From IMG/VR virus record IMGVR_UViG_3300027708_000025, positions 86,108 to 150,107 of that record: a stretch of 64,000 nucleotides of DNA; one strand, given 5' to 3'. A program made the position numbers and the translations under genes. The notes under the pieces were generated by a model that was not told the origin of the DNA, ran no database searches, and was given only the letters and a program-made list of their open reading frames with translations. The stretch's first letter is position 1. Each line of letters opens with the position of its first letter. Below are positions 9,925 to 21,659 of the stretch, in pieces. Source of the DNA: a virus.

Positions 9925-11112
9925 TTAGAAAGGAACTTCATCCTTATTTGATTCAGACTTCACTTCCGCAGTTGGATCAATACCAGCATCAATTTTGCTG
10001 TACAAGTCAAGAAATGCAGTCTTTGTTTCGCCATCAAAACGATTGATACAATATTTGATTGCATCCATTTTATCATTGAAGATAGTGTATGCCTCGGCAA
10101 TGTGAGACAAACGGCGAGTGGAAATCAATTCATCAATTGCACCTTCTTCAAATGTCTTACGAATGATATCAGCCCACTTCACAAGATTTTCTGCGAATGC
10201 TTTATCGTTGATACCAAGACTGTCAAACAGTTTAGTCAAAATCTTAGTTTCAACTTTAGTGTCAGGATATTCCTGTTCAACTGTAATTGGGAAACGCTCA
10301 AGGAACGCATCATCAAGAATTGTTGCCGCCATGTAGCGACCAGTCTCATCACCTTTACCTTTGGTGTTTGCAGTAGCGATAATATTGAAACCTGTAATTG
10401 GTTCAACAAATTCACCAGTTTTCTTAACGAACAAACCTTTGCCTTCAAGTACACCTTGCAAGCACATTAGTTTATTTGAACCACGATCAATTTCATCAAG
10501 AATCAAAACGGCACCAGACTTCATTGCTTGAACAACTGGACCATCAAACCACTTTGTCTCTCCGTCAATCAAACGGAAGCCACCAATCAAATCATCTTCA
10601 TCAGTCTCAGGTGAAATATTTACACGGAGACATTCAACTTTCAATTGGGCACATGCTTGTTCAACCATGAAAGTCTTGCCGTTGCCAGAGAGACCAGAAA
10701 CGAATACTGGATAAAATTTCTTTGATGCAACAATACGTTTCATGTTGTCAAAGAATCCAAAAGGAACATATAATGAATTCACTTTGGGAATAATTGCGCC
10801 TTCTTGCATACGTGCAACGGAAGACATTTTTGCTACCGCTTTTGCAACAGGAGCCATAATGGGTTCAGAGATTGGCATGGAAGAAACTGGATTGGATTTG
10901 ACTAGTGCAAGACCAGCCATGTTAACATTAAATTCTTGGAGAGGCAATTGATACTTGCCACGTCCAACTCGGTACTGATCGGCTTCAAGCCAGAACTGGC
11001 GTTTGGTGCCAGTTTCTTCAGAAAGTGTTACCAATTGCTGACGGGTTACAACTTCACCAAAACGTTTTGCGGCTTCGGTAACAAATGCAACTTTTTCACT
11101 TTGCGTAATCAT
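9925..11112 (-). CDS. MoxR/CobS-like AAA+ ATPase
   Basis: Walker A GLSGNGKT, TDEDDLIGG, ILDEID, ATANTKGKG and AFLERF motifs. Confidence 0.92.
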   Translation of the reverse strand: MITQSEKVAFVTEAAKRFGEVVTRQQLVTLSEETGTKRQFWLEADQYRVGRGKYQLPLQEFNVNMAGLALVKSNPVSSMPISEPIMAPVAKAVAKMSSVARMQEGAIIPKVNSLYVPFGFFDNMKRIVASKKFYPVFVSGLSGNGKTFMVEQACAQLKVECLRVNISPETDEDDLIGGFRLIDGETKWFDGPVVQAMKSGAVLILDEIDRGSNKLMCLQGVLEGKGLFVKKTGEFVEPITGFNIIATANTKGKGDETGRYMAATILDDAFLERFPITVEQEYPDTKVETKILTKLFDSLGINDKAFAENLVKWADIIRKTFEEGAIDELISTRRLSHIAEAYTIFNDKMDAIKYCINRFDGETKTAFLDLYSKIDAGIDPTAEVKSESNKDEVPF

Positions 11113-11155
11113 AATATAATTTGCCTTTCAGTTAAAAATCAATTTCAATACTAGT

Positions 11156-11215
11156 AGTATAACAGAATATTTATGGCAAGTCAAGGGTTACTTTGACTGT
11201 TGTTTTTATACAACA
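11156..11215 (-). promoter_or_regulatory. Sigma70-type early promoter with upstream palindrome
   Basis: TTGACT-17 bp-(TGT)TATACT; TGTTGT-N6-ACAACA at 11198-11215. Confidence 0.75.
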
Positions 11216-13408
11216 TCAAGCAATTTCCTTGATTACCTTAGAGAGAAGAACACGATTAGTCAAACGGTTTTGGTTCATCTTTAAGAATGCACCTTTCAAC
11301 TTACGTGCAGAAACATCTTTGGTATCACCAAGAATATCATCTAACGAATCATCATCGGTAGTCAAATCATTACCACCAGGGATTAAGAAGTACTCAGAGT
11401 ATCCATATCCGTTGACAGAGAAAAACTTTTCGTTACGGAATTGCTTGTATCCATCATCCGTCATTATCATGTTGAAACGTGACATTGCATTTTGAAAATA
11501 ACGTTTGCTTTTTGGCAGGATGTAGAATCCAATCAAATTGCAACCAGTACGATCTTTTAGAATTTGCAATAACGTTGGCGTCACACCTTTGTCACTCACA
11601 CGATAAGTTTTTGCAGAATCTTTATCTTCAACATAAGATACTGAACGGAAGTCAGAAGGTCCGATTCTAGTACCACGGCAATCGGCGGATGAAGTCCACA
11701 ATGTAGTACTGTCTTCTCCGTCTGTCAAAAAGATAACATTCACAATTTCAGAGCGAGTACGTTTACGGAAATCATTCACAACATTAGATGCTACTTGAAT
11801 TGTCGCATTCAACGGAGTGCCACCAAGACCCATATCATTACGGATATAATTGGACTTGTAATTTCTGCGGTGCTGTACATAAGGTTGATATGCCTCAGCC
11901 ACTTGCAACAAATCATTTGCAAATTTACGATATGTTTGGTTTTTCATACTGCTGGACAAAATGTTCAACAAAGAAAAATAGTCAATGTCTAATTGATTTT
12001 CTTCAATATCTACAGGAGAATCAACTGGCATATCTTTTAGTTTCTTTGGATACTGAGTACTGAAAGCATAAACATCAAACGGAATATTCACTTTGCGGCA
12101 GAACGTTGACATTGTAATTAACTGTTCAATCGTACCAGACATATTGTCAGCCATTGAACCAGACCAATCAATGAACATTACAATACCATGATTCTTACCA
12201 TCAGCAACGGCACCAATCTTACGGAAGATATCGTCATTGAATTTGTAAGTATGCAATTTGTTAGTGTCAAGTGTACCAGTATCGGAGACTGTTACACGGC
12301 GCAACTCAGCCGCTTTCTTTTTCATTTCAAATTCTTTTATAAGATATGCAATAGCATTCTTATTCTTGGATTCAAATTTAGTCAATAGAGTAGCATCATA
12401 ACGCTCATGCACTTCCAACTCAGGATCATCGTAAAAGTTATCTTCAAAGAACTTCAATTCTTTAAAAGGAACAATATAATTTTTCAAATCAATTTTCTTT
12501 TGACTTGCAATCTTGCCAACATAAATTTCTTTTGTTTCTGCAAGACCTTTCAATGCTTGTTGAAATTTTTCATCTGTTACAGATTTAACTTCATCACCAT
12601 ACACCTTTAACTCATTAGGCATAGTATTTTCAAACGTGGGTTCGTTAGAATACCCATTGTCAAAGCGGTCTTCGGATTCATAATCGTCATCATCTTCACC
12701 GTCATCGGAGCCAGAACTGTTTGGATTTTTGTCTTCATAGTCTTCGGTATCATCACCAAAGCCATCTTCAGTATCAAACTCTTCATCATCAAATTCGCCA
12801 TTTTCTTTGCGTTTTTGAAATTCTTCTTTAGCCTCTTGACGTTTTTGTTCTAACTCTGCTTTGCAAAATTCATACAAACGTTCGGTGATATCTTTCACTT
12901 GCTCAAACGAATCTGCCGTTTCAACTTCTTTAACATACAGCATTTCTTCAGCATTGAATTTAATGCCTGCAATAGCACCAAGTTTAAAATGTAAATTGAT
13001 TCTATCAATCAACATCATTGCGTTTACATCTTGACCTTTGATGCCAAAGAAGTCACGTTCAGTAAATTGACGATAAGCAATAGCCATTGGTTTACGCAAA
13101 CCTGGATATCTGTCTTTCATTCTACGTTCAATACGTGCATCTTCAATCACATTCAAGAATGTAGAAAATGCAGAACCACCAGCCTTAGCGGCATCAACAT
13201 ATGATTGTGGTGTGTCTAATGCGTGACCCACTTCATGCCCGACCAAAAGGTCTGTCATTTCAGGTGTGGTGTCGTTCATAATGGGAAGAGTAAGACGGCG
13301 ATTGACGATATCAAATGATGCAGTTTGCACCTTGCGATATTCTACCGAAATATTTTCTGTAGCAAGTAACTTTGCTAGAGTGGATTTTGAAAGTTGTGTA
13401 TTAAGCAT
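11216..13408 (-). CDS. CobT-like protein: N-terminal HEXXH metallopeptidase-like domain, acidic linker, C-terminal VWA domain
   Basis: HEVGHAL...NVIEDARIE; D/E-rich linker; MIDAS motifs DWSGSM, GGTPL and FLTDGE. Confidence 0.9.
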   Translation of the reverse strand: MLNTQLSKSTLAKLLATENISVEYRKVQTASFDIVNRRLTLPIMNDTTPEMTDLLVGHEVGHALDTPQSYVDAAKAGGSAFSTFLNVIEDARIERRMKDRYPGLRKPMAIAYRQFTERDFFGIKGQDVNAMMLIDRINLHFKLGAIAGIKFNAEEMLYVKEVETADSFEQVKDITERLYEFCKAELEQKRQEAKEEFQKRKENGEFDDEEFDTEDGFGDDTEDYEDKNPNSSGSDDGEDDDDYESEDRFDNGYSNEPTFENTMPNELKVYGDEVKSVTDEKFQQALKGLAETKEIYVGKIASQKKIDLKNYIVPFKELKFFEDNFYDDPELEVHERYDATLLTKFESKNKNAIAYLIKEFEMKKKAAELRRVTVSDTGTLDTNKLHTYKFNDDIFRKIGAVADGKNHGIVMFIDWSGSMADNMSGTIEQLITMSTFCRKVNIPFDVYAFSTQYPKKLKDMPVDSPVDIEENQLDIDYFSLLNILSSSMKNQTYRKFANDLLQVAEAYQPYVQHRRNYKSNYIRNDMGLGGTPLNATIQVASNVVNDFRKRTRSEIVNVIFLTDGEDSTTLWTSSADCRGTRIGPSDFRSVSYVEDKDSAKTYRVSDKGVTPTLLQILKDRTGCNLIGFYILPKSKRYFQNAMSRFNMIMTDDGYKQFRNEKFFSVNGYGYSEYFLIPGGNDLTTDDDSLDDILGDTKDVSARKLKGAFLKMNQNRLTNRVLLSKVIKEIA

Positions 13409-13439: not shown

Positions 13440-14042
13440 TCAAGCTGTTTCTGCCACAGGTTGTTGTATTATTGCAACAATCTTTGGACGGATGATAACT
13501 GTCTGTGGAACTTCAATGTCGTTTTGTTTATAGTAGCGGTGCATTTTTACAGTAGCGGTAATTGTTGCAGTTTCACCTTCGGCAGGGAAATCTGCATTGC
13601 CGCTGAAGACAAGTACATTGCCATCGGTATCTTCACAGATACGGAGAAGACTTCTGCCAGAATCAGCCCAGTAGAATTTGGGGCGGTCAACTACAATTGC
13701 TTTTTTAACTGTTAGAGTAACAGTAATCTTTTTCTTTTCGGTGCCAATGAATGTACGGGTTGCGTTTTTGGTAGCCGCTTGTGCAGTCCATTGTGCTTTG
13801 CGTTCGGCAAAGGTTGCGATAGACTTACGTACAGCAAGGACTTGTTTTTCTGTCAACTTGCCATAACTGTTCAACGAACCAAGAAGGTTTGAGTAGAACG
13901 AATTCTTCTCAGAATTAGAAATAAGGAACTGGACGATATCGCCAGCATCGGAATACGTTTTATAGAACGTTTTGGTGGCATTGTTTATGATGTTCCGCTT
14001 GATGGCGGCATTATAAGCGCAAGGGTGTTCAATGTGTGACAT
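13440..14042 (-). CDS. Hypothetical early protein with probable C-terminal OB-fold
   Basis: 200-aa ORF with GAGG SD and its own promoter; KLTEKQ helix followed by a beta-rich C-terminus. Confidence 0.75.
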   Translation of the reverse strand: MSHIEHPCAYNAAIKRNIINNATKTFYKTYSDAGDIVQFLISNSEKNSFYSNLLGSLNSYGKLTEKQVLAVRKSIATFAERKAQWTAQAATKNATRTFIGTEKKKITVTLTVKKAIVVDRPKFYWADSGRSLLRICEDTDGNVLVFSGNADFPAEGETATITATVKMHRYYKQNDIEVPQTVIIRPKIVAIIQQPVAETA

Positions 14043-14199: not shown

Positions 14200-15774
14200 T
14201 TACGGCTTGTAAAAAACAAAAATCGGTTCATACTTCAACCACATCCCGTTCACCTTGCAAAAATTCTTTGCTTTCGGCAAACCAGTGTCAGGATCAATAC
14301 GATTGCCACCTGGCATTTGTGCTAGTGCCATTTTGACTACACCTTTGAATTGCATACCGAGTGATTCCAAAATGTCTTTGCTATCTTTTTCAAGTGGCAA
14401 CATGTCAGCACCAAATTTAGCGTCAGCAATATTCCAAAGTAAGTATCTGTCATTACGCAAATACTCAACAGCAGTTTCTAACGTTGGTCGCAAGAAACCT
14501 TCACGCCATGCATCATAGCCAGTAAACTTTTTATACGATTGCGTTGGGTCTTCGCTATACGCTTCCTTAGCAAAGTAAGGAGGGCTAGTGAACACCATGT
14601 CTAATTCGCCCTTGTACTTTTGGAACGAACTATCATCTCGGACAACTTCAGAACCAAGTTGAAAAATTTCATAAGTATTGGACTGTTCGAACAAAACTCC
14701 TTCGTTCTTTGCGGAGTTATAGAACTCAGCCAAATCGGCATATTTAGTACTAGGAGTGACGCCATCCCCACCAATAGTGTGATCGGTATTAGGATCAGTA
14801 CCCACATAGTGTAAAGGAATAGAAGTGCGAGAAGCCATAGCACCCAAGATACGCCCACCCCAACCAGAAGAGGGATCGTAAACAACAATTCTATCTTGGT
14901 TCTTAACGTGTCTAGTAAATTTTTCATAAAGAAGTTTTGCAGTCAATGGTGGAAAGTTAACAGCATATTGGCACCACGATACTCGGAATGCTTTCAAGCC
15001 GACAGGAAAAATCTTTTGTCCATACTTGTACATACGCAGACGATACTTCTTTTGGTCATGTGACTTTATGTTCATTGTAGACTTAGTTGGAATTGTCTCT
15101 AGAATATCTTGCGTCACTTCAAGATACTTTACGCCTTTGAGTTGTTCATTGTAACCACTATACTCTTCGTCATCATCACGACTCTCTACCCAATAGTCAT
15201 AACCATATTGACGAATGTTATTGTCTTCAAACCAACGAACAAAGTCATTGCCATTCTTAAATTTTACATTATAAGAACCAACAGAAATAATCTCATTGAC
15301 TTTAACTGTATTTGAATATGCATAGAATGAATCACGCTTGAAGTGTCGTTTGGAATACTTCAATGTCTTCTCAAGTAATTCATCTTTTAGAAAGTGGTCA
15401 TAGATTGAAAGCCCATCGTCATTCTTAGAGTAGTTAATGCGTGTTTTCATCATGGTTGGGAACCATTGATTAGCCGCATTGCCGACTACGCTAGTATTTC
15501 TGATTACATCTTTTTCACCAGTCAATTCATCAACATGTTCAAATTCATGCACAGAGAATCCATACATCTCTTTGAATTGTTTTTTGATCGCACCTTCATC
15601 CCAACCAACTCTAGGGGGTTGACCCATAGTGTCCCATGAGTGTACAACTGCTTTACGCAAATCAATGAACCATTGACGAAATTCGTCTTCAGTCATCCAT
15701 TGCACTTCTTCAAATGTCTTGTTTGTTTCGTGGTTCAATAACCAATCGTTACGTTCATAAAAATGTTTTGTCAT
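14200..15774 (-). CDS. SAM-dependent amino-methyltransferase (N4-C/N6-A DNA MTase-like) with large N-terminal region
   Basis: Motif I YDPSSGWGGR and motif IV FTSPPYF; start ATG 15774 overlaps the dCMP deaminase stop (ATGA). Confidence 0.85.
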   Translation of the reverse strand: MTKHFYERNDWLLNHETNKTFEEVQWMTEDEFRQWFIDLRKAVVHSWDTMGQPPRVGWDEGAIKKQFKEMYGFSVHEFEHVDELTGEKDVIRNTSVVGNAANQWFPTMMKTRINYSKNDDGLSIYDHFLKDELLEKTLKYSKRHFKRDSFYAYSNTVKVNEIISVGSYNVKFKNGNDFVRWFEDNNIRQYGYDYWVESRDDDEEYSGYNEQLKGVKYLEVTQDILETIPTKSTMNIKSHDQKKYRLRMYKYGQKIFPVGLKAFRVSWCQYAVNFPPLTAKLLYEKFTRHVKNQDRIVVYDPSSGWGGRILGAMASRTSIPLHYVGTDPNTDHTIGGDGVTPSTKYADLAEFYNSAKNEGVLFEQSNTYEIFQLGSEVVRDDSSFQKYKGELDMVFTSPPYFAKEAYSEDPTQSYKKFTGYDAWREGFLRPTLETAVEYLRNDRYLLWNIADAKFGADMLPLEKDSKDILESLGMQFKGVVKMALAQMPGGNRIDPDTGLPKAKNFCKVNGMWLKYEPIFVFYKP

Positions 15775-16235
15775 ATTATTTGTTTTACTGTTATTCCGCA
15801 TTTATTTAGGAAACTGATTCCTGTGTCATCACGATAATCTTCACCATAGAAGACTTCTTTAATTCCGCTTTGAAATATCATTTTAGCACAGTCCATGCAT
15901 GGGGCGCAAGTGATAAACATACTTGCACCATCACCACTCTCGGTAGACTTAGCAAGTTTTGCGATTGCGTTAGACTCTGCATGGAGAACTTCGGATTTTG
16001 TTTTGAGTTCTGTTTTTTTTGTCAAAGAAAAAACACCAGGAGAAATTTCTTCTTGGGTAATAAACATGTCCTCACAATTATTATCCCATCCGCTTGGCAT
16101 ACCATTGTAGCCGATTGAAATGATCCTGTCATCTTTTACAATGACAGCACCAACATGTTTTCTTTTTGCGCTACTCAATTCGGCAAAGACTTTTGCAGTC
16201 TTCATGTATGCGCCTAGATATTTTTCTTTAATCAT
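15771..16235 (-). CDS. cd: dCMP deaminase
   Basis: VGAVIVK, GYNG, HAESNA and PCMDC zinc motifs; likely start 16235 (MIKEKY). Confidence 0.95.
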   Translation of the reverse strand: MIKEKYLGAYMKTAKVFAELSSAKRKHVGAVIVKDDRIISIGYNGMPSGWDNNCEDMFITQEEISPGVFSLTKKTELKTKSEVLHAESNAIAKLAKSTESGDGASMFITCAPCMDCAKMIFQSGIKEVFYGEDYRDDTGISFLNKCGITVKQII

Positions 16236-16482
16236 TGTCTTCGTATTTTTCAGTTTGTTCAAAACGTCTTTCTTGAATTGTTTTTTCTTTCCAGACTTTT
16301 CTAGGATTTGCACACATCACACAATTTGGATTTCCGCAATCTAGTACATGATGTTTAGCTAATTGATGAGGAGACTCAACTGATATATTATATGCTTTAG
16401 CAATTTTTAATTGTTTTCGTATTGCATTTTCGTCTTTAAGGATTCGTTTAGATTTTTTGAATTTATCTTCTTCGTTACTCAT
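16228..16482 (-). CDS. Small basic putative Zn-binding protein
   Basis: KHHVLDCGNPNCVMCANPRK motif; AAGGA SD. Confidence 0.75.
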   Translation of the reverse strand: MSNEEDKFKKSKRILKDENAIRKQLKIAKAYNISVESPHQLAKHHVLDCGNPNCVMCANPRKVWKEKTIQERRFEQTEKYEDND

Positions 16483-16504
16483 GTTCGTTTCCTTTGAATA
16501 TTTG

Positions 16505-17269
16505 TTACGCTACATTCCAGATTAGTGCGCCTGGTTTCCCACTACTCACTACGAACTGCCAAAGTTTAGCATCGTAGTACTTCTCAGATGGATATGGAGG
16601 TGCTTGATCCTCTTCTATTGCTTGGTCATACTTATATGGTGAACGCATAGTAATAGCACGACCTTTTTCATAGTCACTCATCTTATGTCCAATCTCTACT
16701 GCATATGCAGGCACATCAGGAAATGCTAATTGCAATCCACGATTCAATGTTCCACTTGATGCAACAGTCCAAATCTCTGTTGGTTTAATTTTCAAATCTG
16801 TTGCGACTTTAACAATTGATGCAAGCACAGACGGATGTTCTAATCCTAAAGGCAAGCATTGTCTGCGTTTTGTATCTTCTTCTTGATATCGTCTTGCTCT
16901 TGCTTTTGTCACAGTAAGCATACCATTGTCAACCCAATGAATAGTGCCGCCAAGGTCCAACACTCTTTGTTGATGCCATGTAGGCTCTTTGCGTTTAGCC
17001 ATGAAGAACGTTGCTTTTTTTCCATACAGATTGCACACATATGTTAAAGATATAGGACCCCAACCAACTTTGTTTGCACCACCAAAGACCCATTCATCAC
17101 ATTGAGTAGTTTTCACAAGATGGTCAATGAATCTACTTTTGCTTCCATACTCTAACAAGTCATCACGCACAACATGAAAGCCATGGTGCATTTCAACTAT
17201 TGGTGCAGGGTTTGGGTCTTTCCATCCTTGTATTATATCATAAGATTCTTCAGGATACAAGCGACTCAT
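16505..17269 (-). CDS. PLP-dependent enzyme, fold type II (ACC deaminase/D-cysteine desulfhydrase/Thr dehydratase-like)
   Basis: VVRDDLLEYGSKSR (PLP lysine), WTVASSGTL phosphate loop, YYDAKLW; AGGAG SD before ATG 17269. Confidence 0.85.
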   Translation of the reverse strand: MSRLYPEESYDIIQGWKDPNPAPIVEMHHGFHVVRDDLLEYGSKSRFIDHLVKTTQCDEWVFGGANKVGWGPISLTYVCNLYGKKATFFMAKRKEPTWHQQRVLDLGGTIHWVDNGMLTVTKARARRYQEEDTKRRQCLPLGLEHPSVLASIVKVATDLKIKPTEIWTVASSGTLNRGLQLAFPDVPAYAVEIGHKMSDYEKGRAITMRSPYKYDQAIEEDQAPPYPSEKYYDAKLWQFVVSSGKPGALIWNVA

Positions 17270-18362
17270 ACAGGTCTCCTTCCGAGATTGCATCTATGAC
17301 TAAGTGAATTCTATTTTCAGTTCCATTGTTGATAGCTTGATGTGGCTTACGTGTATCTAGAAACCACAAGTCTCCAACATCCATATGTACCTTTTGTGGA
17401 TTGCCTTTTGGATCCCACACAGTAAAAATCATGTTTGGATTAGTAATGATTGGTATGTGTAGTCTTGCAAGTTTGCCTTTAGAACCACCAGAGTCTTTAT
17501 CTACTTGATCGGTATGTCGTTCAAGTTCTCCACCGCCAGGTTTCAATTGCATGAAACGAACACGATGCACTTGTTTATATTTACTCAACAACTCACGCAC
17601 TTCAGGAAACATATCATAGAGTGGTGTGTCTTGCAATTCAAATTTTATGTCTTTGTTTTTTTCTTTCCAGTCATCACTCATCTCTGAAGGCTTTGTAATG
17701 AAGTCTGATTCTGGACGATAGCCACGTAGTGACAATGCAGACCATGCTTTATCTTTGTTGTAGTTACTATAATGATTTGTGAATGCTGGTAACGTTGCTA
17801 ACTTAGCAGAAACAGATTCAATAAATTCTGATGTGATTGCACCAATCTTTTTGATGCTTAGATATTCTGTTGATTCAACTTTAGGAAATGAACGTGGAAT
17901 AGGACTGTTACTCTTAAAGTAAATTGCATGTACTTCTCCGTATGTTGTAATCTTAGGACCAACATAACAGAAACCCAACTCTTCAGCTAAGTCACAATGT
18001 GCTTTGTTTTCTGCCCATACAGTTAACCAAAAATTGTTTCCTGACAATAAAGAAATTTGATGCTTAATCGTATTAATATTGCCTGAAAGTTTTCCGATTG
18101 AAACATCACCTTTTACTTTTGTTGCAATAACTGTGTCTCCATGCATTGTAATATCTGATGCAACTTTACTATTCGTAACTTCAAACATTGAAGGTTCAAG
18201 ACCAAATTCACTAAAAATAAGATTACCTTTTTTCAAAGACTCTGCAATGTTGTTCTTCTTATACTTTGCGAAAGGAGATAATGTATATGCATTGTAGTCT
18301 GCATACTGTGCCTCAAGCCCTTTGAGATAATCTATGTCATATCCATGTTGCCAAGGTTTCAT
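17250..18362 (-). CDS. Fusion protein: N-terminal GNAT-like domain plus C-terminal 2OG-Fe(II) dioxygenase (Asp/Asn beta-hydroxylase-like)
   Basis: C-terminal RVRFMQLKPGG..HTD, RLHIPIITN, KPHQAINNG..RIHLVID (HxD...H...R); N-terminal WLTVWAENKAHCDLAEELGFCYVG resembles GNAT motif B. Confidence 0.8.
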   Translation of the reverse strand: MKPWQHGYDIDYLKGLEAQYADYNAYTLSPFAKYKKNNIAESLKKGNLIFSEFGLEPSMFEVTNSKVASDITMHGDTVIATKVKGDVSIGKLSGNINTIKHQISLLSGNNFWLTVWAENKAHCDLAEELGFCYVGPKITTYGEVHAIYFKSNSPIPRSFPKVESTEYLSIKKIGAITSEFIESVSAKLATLPAFTNHYSNYNKDKAWSALSLRGYRPESDFITKPSEMSDDWKEKNKDIKFELQDTPLYDMFPEVRELLSKYKQVHRVRFMQLKPGGGELERHTDQVDKDSGGSKGKLARLHIPIITNPNMIFTVWDPKGNPQKVHMDVGDLWFLDTRKPHQAINNGTENRIHLVIDAISEGDLYESLVS

Positions 18363-18865
18363 TTTTTTACCTTACGTTTTAAAATCATGCGTTTGCGTAT
18401 AGCACGTTGTGTTTCAAATGATGATGCCTTTTGAGTATATACTTTTCCAAGCATATGGTCAAATTCGTGCAATGCAATTCGTGCAGTCATGCCAATAAAC
18501 TTTTCAGTTCTTGTTTCACCTGTCTCATCTTGAAAACGAATACGTATTGAGTCTGGACGTTTAACGTTTAGATACAATAGAGGAAAACTTAAACATCCTT
18601 CTTTCATTGTCAGTTCTTTATCTGATACATCAACTATTTTTGGATTAAATACTGCATATGGTTTCTCACTAGTTCTCATAACAAAAACACGATATGGTTG
18701 CCCAACTTGATTAGCTGACAATCCAAGTCCATCATTCTTAATCATCTTATCATGCAATGCTTGTGCAAACTCTTTTGGATCAAATGGTGGGTTATTAAAA
18801 TCAAACTCTTTACATTCTTGCAAAAGAACGGGTGATGTTTCCGAAACTAAATTCAATTCAATCAT
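18359..18865 (-). CDS. def: Peptide deformylase
   Basis: GLGLSANQVG, EGCLSF and HEFDHM motifs. Confidence 0.96.
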   Translation of the reverse strand: MIELNLVSETSPVLLQECKEFDFNNPPFDPKEFAQALHDKMIKNDGLGLSANQVGQPYRVFVMRTSEKPYAVFNPKIVDVSDKELTMKEGCLSFPLLYLNVKRPDSIRIRFQDETGETRTEKFIGMTARIALHEFDHMLGKVYTQKASSFETQRAIRKRMILKRKVKK

Positions 18866-20574
18866 TTTGTTATCCTTGAGAAATTATTTACTTTTTCAAA
18901 TCTAATCACGTTGGCAAACTTGTCTTGCAGAATATCACCTTTGTGTGATATGACAAACAGGTTTGATCCTTCAAGCATGTTTAGAATTTTCATCAAATCT
19001 TCTGTACCATTTGTATCTAATGATGAATCAAAGATTTCGTCAAGTATCAATATGTTTGTACTTGCTGAATTCTTCAACTTGGCAACAGCACGCCAAGTCA
19101 ACATCAATGCCATATCAATACGTTGCTTTTCACCTTCGCTGAATGATGCATATGTGAAATCATCACGATGGCGAGACTTGATTGTTTCTTTGAATGACTC
19201 ATCTAAATTAAAGTTCACAAAGAAATCTAATGATGCAAGATACTTGTTAACTAACTTGTTGATGACTGGTATGTATTGACGAATAATTTTCGTTTTGATA
19301 CCGGTATCTTTTAATAAGTTCGTTGCAATCTCATAATACAAACGTTCTTCAGAAATAACTTTAATCTCAGATTCCAATTCAGCAAGTTCTTGATTCAATG
19401 TTTCAAGTTTTGTTTGTTCAGTTTGCAGGTCATCTTTGACTAACGACAATCGTTCAATTTCTTTTTCAAGACTTTCAATGTATCTACGATTGGCTTTAAT
19501 CTCGCTCTGTTCAAATGTCAATTGTGAATTCAACGTTTGAATTTGTCCTACAATCTTTTCAATCTCATCACATCTAACATTAAGTGTATCAATCTCTTCA
19601 TCAACTTTTTTCAATGCGATATCAACTTCTTCAAGTTTTTTAGATCGCTCTTCAATGATGTGTGATTTGTATTCATCACCGATTGTCTGCTTACATGTTG
19701 GGCAATCATTGTTGTCGTGATAGAATGAAATGTCAGTATTAACTTTCTTAAGTGTTTTACCTAGATTGAGTTTGATGCCTGAGAATTTTGTTATCTTTCC
19801 ATCAACTTTATCTTTGTCTGAAATCTGTGTACACAAATCAGACAAACTTTGACGTAACGTTGTACAGTTAGTTTCACTCTCTATAACTAAATGTTGAGTG
19901 TTAGCAATGTCTTGTTGCTTAGATGAAAGTTGTGCGGCATTACTTTTGTTTAACGAATCAATAAATTGAATTTGATATTGTATCTTTTCACTCTTCAAAT
20001 CAACTGCGTATTTTGTTTGAGAATGTTTTTCTTTCAACAACAAAAACTTATCTTTAAGTGCGCTATTCATGCGAGAGAAGATTTGAATGTCTAACAAGTC
20101 TTCAATGATAGAACGTCTATCGCTTGCAGACAATTGCATGAATGGAGTAAATGATGCTGAACCCAATAGAACGATTTGAGTAAATGATTTATAGTTGAGT
20201 TTGAGAATGAATTTCTCTAGATGTTCCTGATAGTCTTTGACTGCGGCATCTTGATTGACTAGATGCCCATTACAATAAATCTCAAAGATATTTGGTTTGA
20301 TACCACGAACAATTTTGTATGTCTTGTTGCCTGTGTCAAATTCAATTTCGGCAACGCAATCTTTTTGATTGATCGTATTAACAAGTTGCCCTTTGTTAAT
20401 ATTGCGAAATGGTTTACCAAACAGCACAAAGCACAATGCGTCAAGCATCGTAGACTTACCTGAACCATTAGCGCCAACAATCAATGTAGTATTGTTGCTA
20501 TCTAAGTTCAGTTCAGTAAAAAAGTTACCTGTAGATAGAAGGTTCTTCCATCTTAAATTACGAAAAATTATCAT
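18862..20574 (-). CDS. gp46: Recombination endonuclease ATPase subunit (Rad50/SbcC-like)
   Basis: GANGSGKS, CPTC zinc hook, FSEGEK, LDEIFD and VISH motifs. Confidence 0.97.
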   Translation of the reverse strand: MIIFRNLRWKNLLSTGNFFTELNLDSNNTTLIVGANGSGKSTMLDALCFVLFGKPFRNINKGQLVNTINQKDCVAEIEFDTGNKTYKIVRGIKPNIFEIYCNGHLVNQDAAVKDYQEHLEKFILKLNYKSFTQIVLLGSASFTPFMQLSASDRRSIIEDLLDIQIFSRMNSALKDKFLLLKEKHSQTKYAVDLKSEKIQYQIQFIDSLNKSNAAQLSSKQQDIANTQHLVIESETNCTTLRQSLSDLCTQISDKDKVDGKITKFSGIKLNLGKTLKKVNTDISFYHDNNDCPTCKQTIGDEYKSHIIEERSKKLEEVDIALKKVDEEIDTLNVRCDEIEKIVGQIQTLNSQLTFEQSEIKANRRYIESLEKEIERLSLVKDDLQTEQTKLETLNQELAELESEIKVISEERLYYEIATNLLKDTGIKTKIIRQYIPVINKLVNKYLASLDFFVNFNLDESFKETIKSRHRDDFTYASFSEGEKQRIDMALMLTWRAVAKLKNSASTNILILDEIFDSSLDTNGTEDLMKILNMLEGSNLFVISHKGDILQDKFANVIRFEKVNNFSRITK

Positions 20575-21659
20575 TCAATGTTTTCTGTGGATAGTGCCTC
20601 AACATAAAGTTCACGCATCAATGTTTTAAGTTTATTTGTATCAGAAATATTTAGGCTTTGTGCATCAATGAATGTAGAAAGAATTGTCATAGTATCTTGC
20701 GCTTGGTCAATAATATCTTTTTCAGTTGTCTCTTCATTCAATTCTGTAAAGTCTTCAACAATTGTCACATCAACTGGACCAACTTTATAAATTTCATCTA
20801 TAAGTTTCTCAAACAAATATGGGTCTTGTTTATTAGCAACAATGACTTTCACATAAGCATTTGCATATTTACTGAAATCAAGTTTCTTTAAGTCTTCAAT
20901 TTTTAATTTGTCTGTGCTATTGTTATCGTCATAATTTACTTTGTAAAACATTCTGTGAGGATTCTCTAAGAATGTTGTCTTCATTGTTTCAGTATCTAAG
21001 ATGCCAAATTGTTTTTTATCTTTGTAGTCATTCCAAAACAATTCATATGGTGCACCAACATATGTGATGTTGTCGTGCTGTGATGGCGTATGATAGTGTC
21101 CGCTGTATACATGATTATAATTGTTTAGAAACTTATAGTCAAGTCCTTCATGGCTATCTACACCACGGAACAATGGAAAACCAGCGAGTTCAAAGTGTCC
21201 CATGCACAATGGAGAAGATGTGTTCTTTACAAACTCAAAAACTTCTGCTTCATTGCTTTTGCAAATCCATGGTATCATATCAATTTTGATTCCATCAACT
21301 TCAAGTGTTCCTGGTTTCTGCCATAGAACAATATTGTGATAGTCTCTCAACAACAAGTCTGGTGAATTAACTTCTAAACTTTCTTTCCAGAAGATATCGT
21401 GATTGCCAATCAATGCGTGAACAGTAATGCCTTCTTCAACGCATCTATCAAAAAAGTATCTACGACTTTCCATCAGCGAAAGAAAGTTAATATACTTTCG
21501 TCTGTCAAACAAATCACCAAGTTGAATGATTGTTCTTACGCCATGCTCTTCTAATTTTGGAAAGAATGTTTCATCATAAAATTTTTCATAGTAAGCATGA
21601 AACGCTTTGGAGTCATTTCTAACACCAAAGTGCGTATCACCTAATAGACATATTCTCAT
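20571..21659 (-). CDS. gp47: Recombination endonuclease nuclease subunit (Mre11/SbcD-like)
   Basis: GDTHFG, GDLFD, GNHD and SGHYH motifs. Confidence 0.97.
   Translation of the reverse strand: MRICLLGDTHFGVRNDSKAFHAYYEKFYDETFFPKLEEHGVRTIIQLGDLFDRRKYINFLSLMESRRYFFDRCVEEGITVHALIGNHDIFWKESLEVNSPDLLLRDYHNIVLWQKPGTLEVDGIKIDMIPWICKSNEAEVFEFVKNTSSPLCMGHFELAGFPLFRGVDSHEGLDYKFLNNYNHVYSGHYHTPSQHDNITYVGAPYELFWNDYKDKKQFGILDTETMKTTFLENPHRMFYKVNYDDNNSTDKLKIEDLKKLDFSKYANAYVKVIVANKQDPYLFEKLIDEIYKVGPVDVTIVEDFTELNEETTEKDIIDQAQDTMTILSTFIDAQSLNISDTNKLKTLMRELYVEALSTENIE

Follow-up and report, generated by a model that had tools for sequence, protein, structure and literature searches.

A candidate base-modification module of methyltransferase, pyridoxal-phosphate enzyme and oxygenase in T4-like phages

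The gene block and the trio within it

The stretch of DNA described here (the window, 64,000 nucleotides in full) comprises bases 86108-150107 of the IMG/VR record IMGVR_UViG_3300027708_000025, a complete 150,107-bp virus with direct terminal repeats. The virus is a T4-like myovirus whose gp46 shows 48% identity to that of Methylophilales phage Melnitz and to cyanomyovirus gp46, and this DNA recurs in 22 sequencing runs, labelled mainly freshwater or lake water. The operon is headed by the recombination nuclease genes gp47 (20571-21659, minus strand, Metallophos domain) and gp46 (18862-20574, minus strand, SMC_N/AAA_23). Behind them, in surroundings of 33-39% GC, six minus-strand open reading frames (ORFs) follow head-to-tail: the genes for a peptide deformylase (def), an oxygenase (oxy370), a pyridoxal 5′-phosphate (PLP) enzyme (p262), a small Cys/His protein (zn84), a dCMP deaminase (dcd) and a methyltransferase (MTase)-like protein (mt533). 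Natural fusions and conserved adjacency join the MTase, the PLP enzyme and the oxygenase, which is why the best reading of the comparisons is that mt533-type MTase, p262 and oxy370 are functionally linked and that the other three genes are not.

A sequence-only reading of the window had described six co-directional, overlapping genes downstream of gp47/gp46, and this arrangement is borne out. All six are present on the minus strand: def at 18359-18865, oxy370 at 17250-18362, p262 at 16505-17293 (likely start Met9 at 17269), zn84 at 16228-16482, dcd as an ORF at 15771-16313 (likely start ATG at 16235) and mt533 at 14200-15801 (likely start Met10 at 15774). Overlaps of 4 bp are found at the gp47/gp46, gp46/def and def/oxy370 junctions. 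As neighbouring genes of the block either overlap, by 4 bp up to some 30 bp, or stand 22 bp apart, the block reads as a single translationally coupled operon. A scan for promoters and terminators returned 35 sites against 32.8 expected and was uninformative on transcription units. Megablast of the block against cultured phages gave zero matches, and p262, full-length mt533 and oxy370 were found in no cultured T4-like phage of the collection searched. Members of the p262 and mt533 families were found on 100-170-kb phage contigs from lakes and oceans. Full-text literature searches found no description of the MTase-PLP-oxygenase combination, and the trio is apparently a widespread, undescribed module.

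The neighbourhood was mapped in 46 IMG/VR loci carrying p262 relatives. Among T4-like loci with p262 whose downstream DNA extends far enough, 39 of 40 keep the order oxy370, p262, mt533, and in every mapped locus the oxy370 and p262 genes overlap. Close relatives retain the gene order of the window, but additional DNA separates def from oxy370, p262 from zn84, and zn84 from dcd. In divergent relatives with gp46 of 55-60% identity (L026, L033-35, L040-43 and L045), zn84 and dcd are missing and oxy370, p262 and mt533 are directly contiguous. A distant T4-like relative (L049, 5299-11219; p262 51% identical) has two genes of 139 and 365 aa, without Pfam match, between the oxygenase and p262, and an opposite-strand GIY-YIG homing-endonuclease-like gene separates p262 from the mt533 ortholog there.

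The linkage is also found within single polypeptides. The p262 family comprises 1,488 representative proteins, clustered at 50% identity in a profile search, and the fusion survey covered the best 150 of them. At least 340 aa were present in 35 of the 150; an mt533-type MTase domain was borne by 17 of these 35 and an Asp/Asn-β-hydroxylase-type (AspH) domain by three. In Pfam architecture, P0241 (1081 aa) and P0254 (1138 aa) are MTase+AspH+PALP, P0242, P0244 and P0255 are MTase+PALP, P0284 is PALP+MTase, P0348 is PALP+ParB_N+MTase and P0249 is AspH+YunG+PALP; P0060 combines AspH+PALP. In six of the 17 proteins with an MTase domain, that domain is split by the PLP domain, which lies between motif I and motif IV. 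The fusions are not mere read-through artefacts, because their domain orders differ from the gene order of the window.

A second recurrent partner of the PLP domain is YunG (PF24585), which was seen in P0246, P0250, P0257, P0262, P0269, P0275, P0249 and P0332. In P0257, the positions of Cys, His and Asp recall a papain-like triad, of which the Cys is not kept in P0246. DUF3102 is a further partner (P0340, P0341).

Outside the T4-like phages, one example is gp1 of Erythrobacter phage R6L (vB_EliS-R6L), in which a ParB domain is followed by DPFAGG at about residue 340, PALP at residues 386-620 and CPPY at about residue 660; the latter is a motif IV homologous to that of mt533. The best structural match of p262 in BFVD is an 810-aa viral protein (TMq 0.83, 35% identity), which by its length and identity is taken to be R6L gp1. 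In the R6L paper, gp1 was treated as a CcrM-like methylase and no DNA chemistry was reported (PMC5463345). In Microcystis phage Mae-JY30, an mt533-type MTase gene lies directly upstream of a PALP gene. Eight non-T4 viral contigs with distant p262 homologs were sampled: the MTase is within 1.5 kb in five, among them L148 with the full trio, and the MTase/PLP pairing recurs in sipho- and podo-like contigs. The three-domain fusion P0241 sits in a metagenomic bacterial island (L055, 6520-11570) with two resolvases and a PemK toxin, and has genes for a 397-aa WG-repeat protein and a 140-aa protein behind it. As judged from this one island, the module is also present on a bacterial mobile element. 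A DNA polymerase III β-clamp-like gene was observed beside or between the MTase and PLP genes in two unrelated phages (L056, 5554-9901; R6L, ORF1-ORF2), a hint that the clamp might carry the modification enzymes along as DNA is replicated.

The modularity of the accessories was surveyed from the MTase side in 60 loci showing both gp46 and mt533, where the presence of mt533 is given by construction. Both oxy370 and p262 are present in 17 loci, p262 only in 13, the oxygenase only in seven and neither in 23; in two loci of the last kind, L108 and L111, mt533 begins 17-24 bp past gp46. Since all but one of the 40 p262 loci carry mt533 while mt533 often lacks either accessory, mt533 is the core and p262 and oxy370 are optional add-ons. 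Independent assortment among relatives, which would speak against a joint function, was found in part, even within the trio, where p262 and oxy370 are dispensable; at the same time, the trio is kept contiguous in divergent relatives.

The three proteins

mt533 consists of a conserved N-domain (residues 1-269, 14995-15801) and a class I S-adenosylmethionine (SAM)-dependent amino-MTase domain (residues 270-533, 14200-14994), both on the minus strand like the motifs that follow. The SAM loop, motif I, reads DPSSGWGGR (residues 309-317, 14851-14877), and the catalytic motif IV is SPPY (residues 406-409, 14575-14586). With both motifs invariant in 32 homologs and a class I MTase fold in the AlphaFold model (predicted local distance difference test, pLDDT, 84), the earlier naming of an SPPY amino-methyltransferase holds. 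The closest structures to the MTase domain are Trm11, TrmN and Trm14, then lmo1582, METTL5 and PrmC (Z 12-14), with Z 14.2 to Trm11 (root-mean-square deviation 3.2, 179 aligned) and Z 13.4 to lmo1582. The PADLOC Type II MTase profile matches mt533 at 1.4e-6, and PF01555, whose weak match to mt533 is the sole one in the whole genome, is precomputed on many family members at 54-73% identity. The stretch following SPPY has a homologous counterpart in ParB-fused phage methylases. The family is large, with more than 2,280 clusters at 90% identity. We assign residues 270-533 to the PF01555-type amino-MTases and predict N6-adenine or N4-cytosine activity.

In common with the ParB-fused and orphan phage DNA amino-MTases (PF01555, N6_N4_Mtase), mt533 has a class I SAM fold, motif I DPxxGxGG, motif IV (S/C/D)PPY and then a Y..D region, and its relatives are fused to ParB_N and set among replication genes. 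Unlike those enzymes, T4-like mt533 has a conserved 270-aa N-domain, and proteins of the mt533 type regularly have a PLP domain and an AspH-type oxygenase fused to them or inserted into them. Unlike the β-class MTases, motif I precedes motif IV (permuted order). The N-domain is strongly conserved, with many invariant residues, and is restricted to the T4-like versions. Its profile found no match in the PDB, hhalign found it unrelated to the fused relatives and to R6L gp1, and a search for shorter stand-alone versions returned mostly fragments at contig ends. Structure searches with the whole model were dominated by the MTase domain.

For p262, a model was obtained from a 35-sequence alignment (pLDDT 91). 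Foldseek against the PDB returned D-cysteine desulfhydrase (4d8t, E 4e-10), a homologue of 1-aminocyclopropane-1-carboxylate (ACC) deaminase (1j0a, TMq 0.78) and also threonine deaminases, and phrog_7093, 'threonine dehydratase', matches at 4.9e-30. A sequence profile of p262 found no match in the PDB, and PADLOC had no match for p262, oxy370, zn84 or p200. The fold-type-II PLP enzyme claimed before is hence clear by fold (4d8t, 1j0a) and weak by Pfam, where PALP (PF00291) was matched with E 0.009. PALP homologs pass the Pfam cut-off in R6L gp1 (40.6 bits) and Mae-JY30 (46.3 bits). The Schiff-base residue Lys52 (17138-17140, minus strand), in the motif VVRDDL..YGSK, corresponds to the catalytic Lys of ACC deaminase by motif equivalence. 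All 70 homologs, some with as little as 29% identity, keep this lysine within the motif VVRDDL..(Y/G)G(S/T)K.R. The Gly-rich phosphate loop SSGT (residues 179-182, minus strand) is well conserved in 70 p262 sequences as W..(A/S)GSGTL.R (SSGT/GSGT), and the p262-specific motifs PPFPS..YDAK.W and GALFWNVA are conserved too. p262 is the most conserved protein of the region, with 72-81% identity as against 55-60% for gp46, 31-40% for def and 36-46% for CobS. It looks like a catalytically competent fold-type-II enzyme, 70-80 residues shorter than its cellular cousins. With ACC deaminase and D-cysteine desulfhydrase it shares the fold, a GG(N/T/S)K lysine motif and the Gly-rich phosphate loop; unlike these shared features, its length, its identity of 11-14%, its own motifs, its phage-borne occurrence and its linkage to an MTase set it apart.

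The C-domain of oxy370 (residues 181-370, minus strand) is an Asp/Asn-β-hydroxylase-type Fe(II)/2-oxoglutarate (2OG) oxygenase. It matches Asp_Arg_Hydrox (PF05118) at 9.4e-13 over residues 175-358, with 48.7 bits above a cut-off of 22.6. The iron triad, H283-x-D285 and H341, and the 2OG-binding R351 are invariant in nine diverse homologs, and the domain aligns with proline cis-4-hydroxylase 4p7w. The oxygenase half of the proposed fusion is well founded on these grounds. The other half, a GNAT-like N-domain (residues 1-180, 17823-18362, minus strand), keeps a weak likeness: its profile found two GNATs in the PDB, over the motif-B region alone (E 0.19-0.23), and PF00583 is carried by 71% of the members of one Atlas cluster related to oxy370, but the N-domain has no Pfam match and no GNAT motif A was seen in the alignment. 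The oxygenase/acetyltransferase pairing that is fused in oxy370 recurs in Pseudomonas phage PfAn1 as separate genes of a structural module. A second, short AspH-type oxygenase gene (179-aa ORF) was seen in the same genome outside the window (G000:C1:38708-38998) and may be the 'core' AspH reported for pelagimyophages.

Predicted target and chemistry

We infer that DNA is the target of the mt533 system. Matches to PF01555, Eco57I, PADLOC Type II MTase and mad2 occur among the mt533-type MTases, fusions to ParB_N are found as in phage DNA methylases, and the MTase genes lie amid replication and recombination genes, namely β-clamp (R6L, L056), UvrD and PolA. The closest cultured-phage relative of the oxygenase domain is gp4 of Mycobacterium phage LilMcDreamy, at 30% identity. 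At the end of that genome (L054, NC_051582.1, 1-3759), a ParB-like gene, an annotated queuine tRNA-ribosyltransferase (DpdA-like), a gene matching PF18724, amino acid:DNA transferase (ADDT), at 2.7e-12 and the 367-aa AspH-type oxygenase form a four-gene cluster that looks like a DNA hypermodification cluster in its own right.

The reading that we favour, with a probability of roughly one half, is that mt533, p262 and oxy370 form a modular base-modification system with an amino-MTase core and PLP/oxygenase tailoring, acting most likely on the phage's own DNA. With SAM bound to mt533, the SPPY motif would position a flipped-out base so that its exocyclic amine (N6 of adenine or N4 of cytosine) can be alkylated. 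p262 and oxy370 would share with the MTase a substrate, product or cofactor, and phages with the accessories would make a product more elaborate than a methylated base. Because PLP enzymes need a free or primary α-amino acid and AspH-type enzymes hydroxylate amino-acid β-carbons, the accessories would tailor an amino-acid-like substituent. The purpose would be shielding from host nucleases. The earlier claim of a nucleic-acid modification that matches no described pathway survives in this form for mt533, p262 and oxy370, with def, zn84 and dcd left outside.

A more specific version, which we consider unlikely as it stands, is that the module writes an N-linked, amino-acid-bearing DNA adduct. 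Adenine N6 or cytosine N4 would receive the 3-amino-3-carboxypropyl (acp) group of SAM, or a different amino-acid unit, from the MTase, acting alone or with the nested PLP domain, AspH would β-hydroxylate it and the GNAT-like domain would cap the amine; the aminocarboxypropyl moiety of SAM would be the nearest source of such a group. The side chain of wybutosine in tRNA is built by TYW2, an acp transferase of MTase fold, the 2OG hydroxylase TYW5 and the amine-capping TYW4. By enzyme type alone, the resemblance is to a SAM-using transferase of MTase fold, a cupin 2OG oxygenase and α-amine capping, here GNAT-like. Unlike the wybutosine pathway, which has no PLP enzyme, the target here is probably DNA, and acp transfer by mt533 is hypothetical. 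The anti-restriction systems of Mu Mom and CmoX type, in which transferase-related enzymes add non-methyl groups to bases (PMC12783734, PMC3299994), differ in folds and partners, and neither a carboxy-SAM synthase nor a Mom homolog was seen here.

Several points weigh against the modular base-modification reading. mt533 scores 19.2 bits against PF01555, under the gathering cut-off of 26.7, and p262 scores 15.8 bits against PALP, below the cut-off of 35. Structurally, the MTase domain comes closest to tRNA N2-methylguanosine (m2G) enzymes (Trm11, TrmN) and PrmC, not to DNA MTases. mt533 stands alone in 23 of the 60 loci, and p262 and the oxygenase are not mutually dependent; plain methylation is the simplest reading of mt533 alone, and the PLP enzyme is without obvious role on a methylated base. 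The one exception to the conserved order, L044, has oxy370 and p262 and no mt533 within 8 kb. A protein target is hinted at for one oxygenase/acetyltransferase pair, that of Pseudomonas phage PfAn1 (L141, PV364321.1, 3743-4807): directly behind the AspH-like gene comes a putative acetyltransferase gene, with genes for internal virion proteins next in line.

The self-sufficiency that mt533 shows in those 23 loci would also agree with its being an ordinary anti-restriction N6-adenine or N4-cytosine MTase, with p262 placed at the methionine end of bound SAM or S-adenosylhomocysteine (SAH), eliminating the thioether by γ chemistry of the ACC-synthase/deaminase type and so relieving SAH inhibition or draining host SAM, as phage SAM lyases do, and the oxygenase being a separate add-on. 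We hold this to be unlikely. The motif IV-VI region of mt533 is typical of PF01555, the closest folds to p262 are ACC deaminase and D-cysteine desulfhydrase, and a PLP domain between motifs I and IV would lie near the cofactor site. Those two enzymes carry out C-β/C-γ elimination with small amino acids as substrates, and SAM is the precursor of ACC. Nevertheless, the three-domain fusions with an AspH oxygenase are left unexplained, an attack on SAM would consume the MTase's own cofactor, and no fold-type II enzyme is known to use SAM or SAH. The structural likeness to tRNA m2G MTases, METTL5 and PrmC brings up another proposal, in which the products of the block act on proteins or RNA belonging to the translation machinery or the virion: the deformylase would act on N-termini, the GNAT-like/AspH protein would acetylate and hydroxylate proteins, and mt533 would be an RNA or protein MTase of Trm11/METTL5/PrmC type. 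The characterised AspH-family matches, which are free-amino-acid enzymes or β-hydroxylases, the PfAn1 neighbourhood and the membership of deformylase and AspH in the pelagimyophage core (PMC7029224) are in its favour. We consider it quite unlikely, as DNA MTase profiles match the MTase type, which also occurs fused to ParB_N, the deformylase sorts independently of the trio, the LilMcDreamy AspH homolog lies within an apparent DNA-modification cluster, and a PLP enzyme nested in the MTase would have no role.

The slot between gp46 and cobT is hypervariable, and unrelated auxiliary genes might have gathered there, their adjacency reflecting an insertion hot spot. Deformylase, dcd, zn84, small ORFs and a GIY-YIG homing endonuclease do come and go in this plastic slot, and all four combinations of p262 and oxy370 occur. 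The explanation is nonetheless improbable in view of the fusions in several orders, in unrelated phages and a bacterial mobile element, the same pairing in sipho- and podo-like contigs, and the overlap of oxy370 and p262 that is always present. Far less probable still is a six-gene pathway to a hypermodified base derived from thymidine or uracil, for which the dCMP deaminase would supply dUMP. The dCMP deaminase does lie inside the operon, and PLP enzymes participate in known thymidine hypermodification (PMC8989533). However, no ThyA-type hydroxymethylase (PF00303) and no ThyX was found in the complete genome, and dcd and zn84 are absent from relatives that retain the trio. The complete genome likewise gave no ADDT (PF18724), for which the control genomes were equally silent, no TET/JBP (PF12851), a weaker negative since the controls were also silent, and no TGT/DpdA (PF01702), for which 14 of 14 controls were positive. 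These absences do away with the analogy to the thymidine hypermodifications of ViI, M6 and PaMx11 that the sequence-only reading had drawn. What the favoured modular reading would share with those pathways is post-replicative, multi-enzyme base tailoring that includes a PLP enzyme, and an AspH homolog adjoins an ADDT gene in LilMcDreamy; unlike in ViI, M6 and PaMx11, no hydroxymethylase, ADDT or aGPT-Pplase was found in the genome of the window (with the PF18724 controls silent), and the entry enzyme would be an amino-MTase. Sulfur (Dnd-like) modification, considered on account of a PAPS reductase near R6L gp1, was dropped, the genome being without PF01507.

If the module makes a new DNA adduct, hypermodification would be entered via an amino-methyltransferase rather than via 5-hydroxymethylpyrimidines, and part of the noise in phage 'methylase' annotation would be accounted for. 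It would further bear on restriction and CRISPR evasion and on sequencing bias in viromes, and may offer enzymes for site-directed DNA labelling. Should the amino-acid adduct be real, it would be a DNA counterpart of acp3U/wybutosine chemistry and a new hypermodification class common in aquatic T4-like phages. Nature offers a ready comparison in four genotypes (MTase alone, with the PLP enzyme, with the oxygenase and with both), and the cultured phages R6L and Mae-JY30, which carry the MTase-PLP pair, make the question directly testable.

Genes outside the trio

The identities given earlier to the peptide deformylase and the dCMP deaminase are secure. def matches its Pfam family at 4.9e-37 and TIGR00079 above cut-off, with the motifs EGCLS and HEFDH, while dcd matches PF00383 at 6.6e-22 and phrog_174 at 1e-50, with HAE and PCxxC motifs. 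The proposal of six genes in one pathway, on the other hand, fails on their distribution: def occurs in Melnitz without the trio, and dcd and the Cys/His protein are absent from the divergent relatives that carry it. The Melnitz order is gp47, gp46, a small 'nucleotide modification associated domain' gene and the deformylase. Because it follows gp46 in this trio-less phage, the deformylase is judged to be an old, ancestral neighbour of gp46 that shares the operon and lies outside the module. Its spacing to the trio varies and insertions between the two occur. In pelagimyophages, the deformylase was described as a core gene 'inside a DNA metabolism operon', and AspH likewise as core (PMC7029224).

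zn84 was found solely in loci that also hold the dCMP deaminase, and its match, phrog_4499, is unnamed. The 'Zn protein' of the sequence-only reading has its basis in an HH-x3-C-x4-C-x2-C pattern, which is present, and beyond this pattern and the unnamed PHROG nothing was found to speak for the name. By their occurrence, dcd and zn84 are taken as a mobile pair or variable insert outside the module, with dcd belonging to ordinary nucleotide metabolism.

After the block, a CobS-like AAA ATPase (phrog_249) and a 730-aa CobT-like 'peptidase' (phrog_459) are found at 9925-13408 of the window, as in cyanophages and pelagiphages. Between these genes and mt533 lies the gene for a 200-aa protein (13440-14042), which matches several unnamed PHROGs, and a sigma-70-like promoter match at 14101-14074 belongs to this gene.

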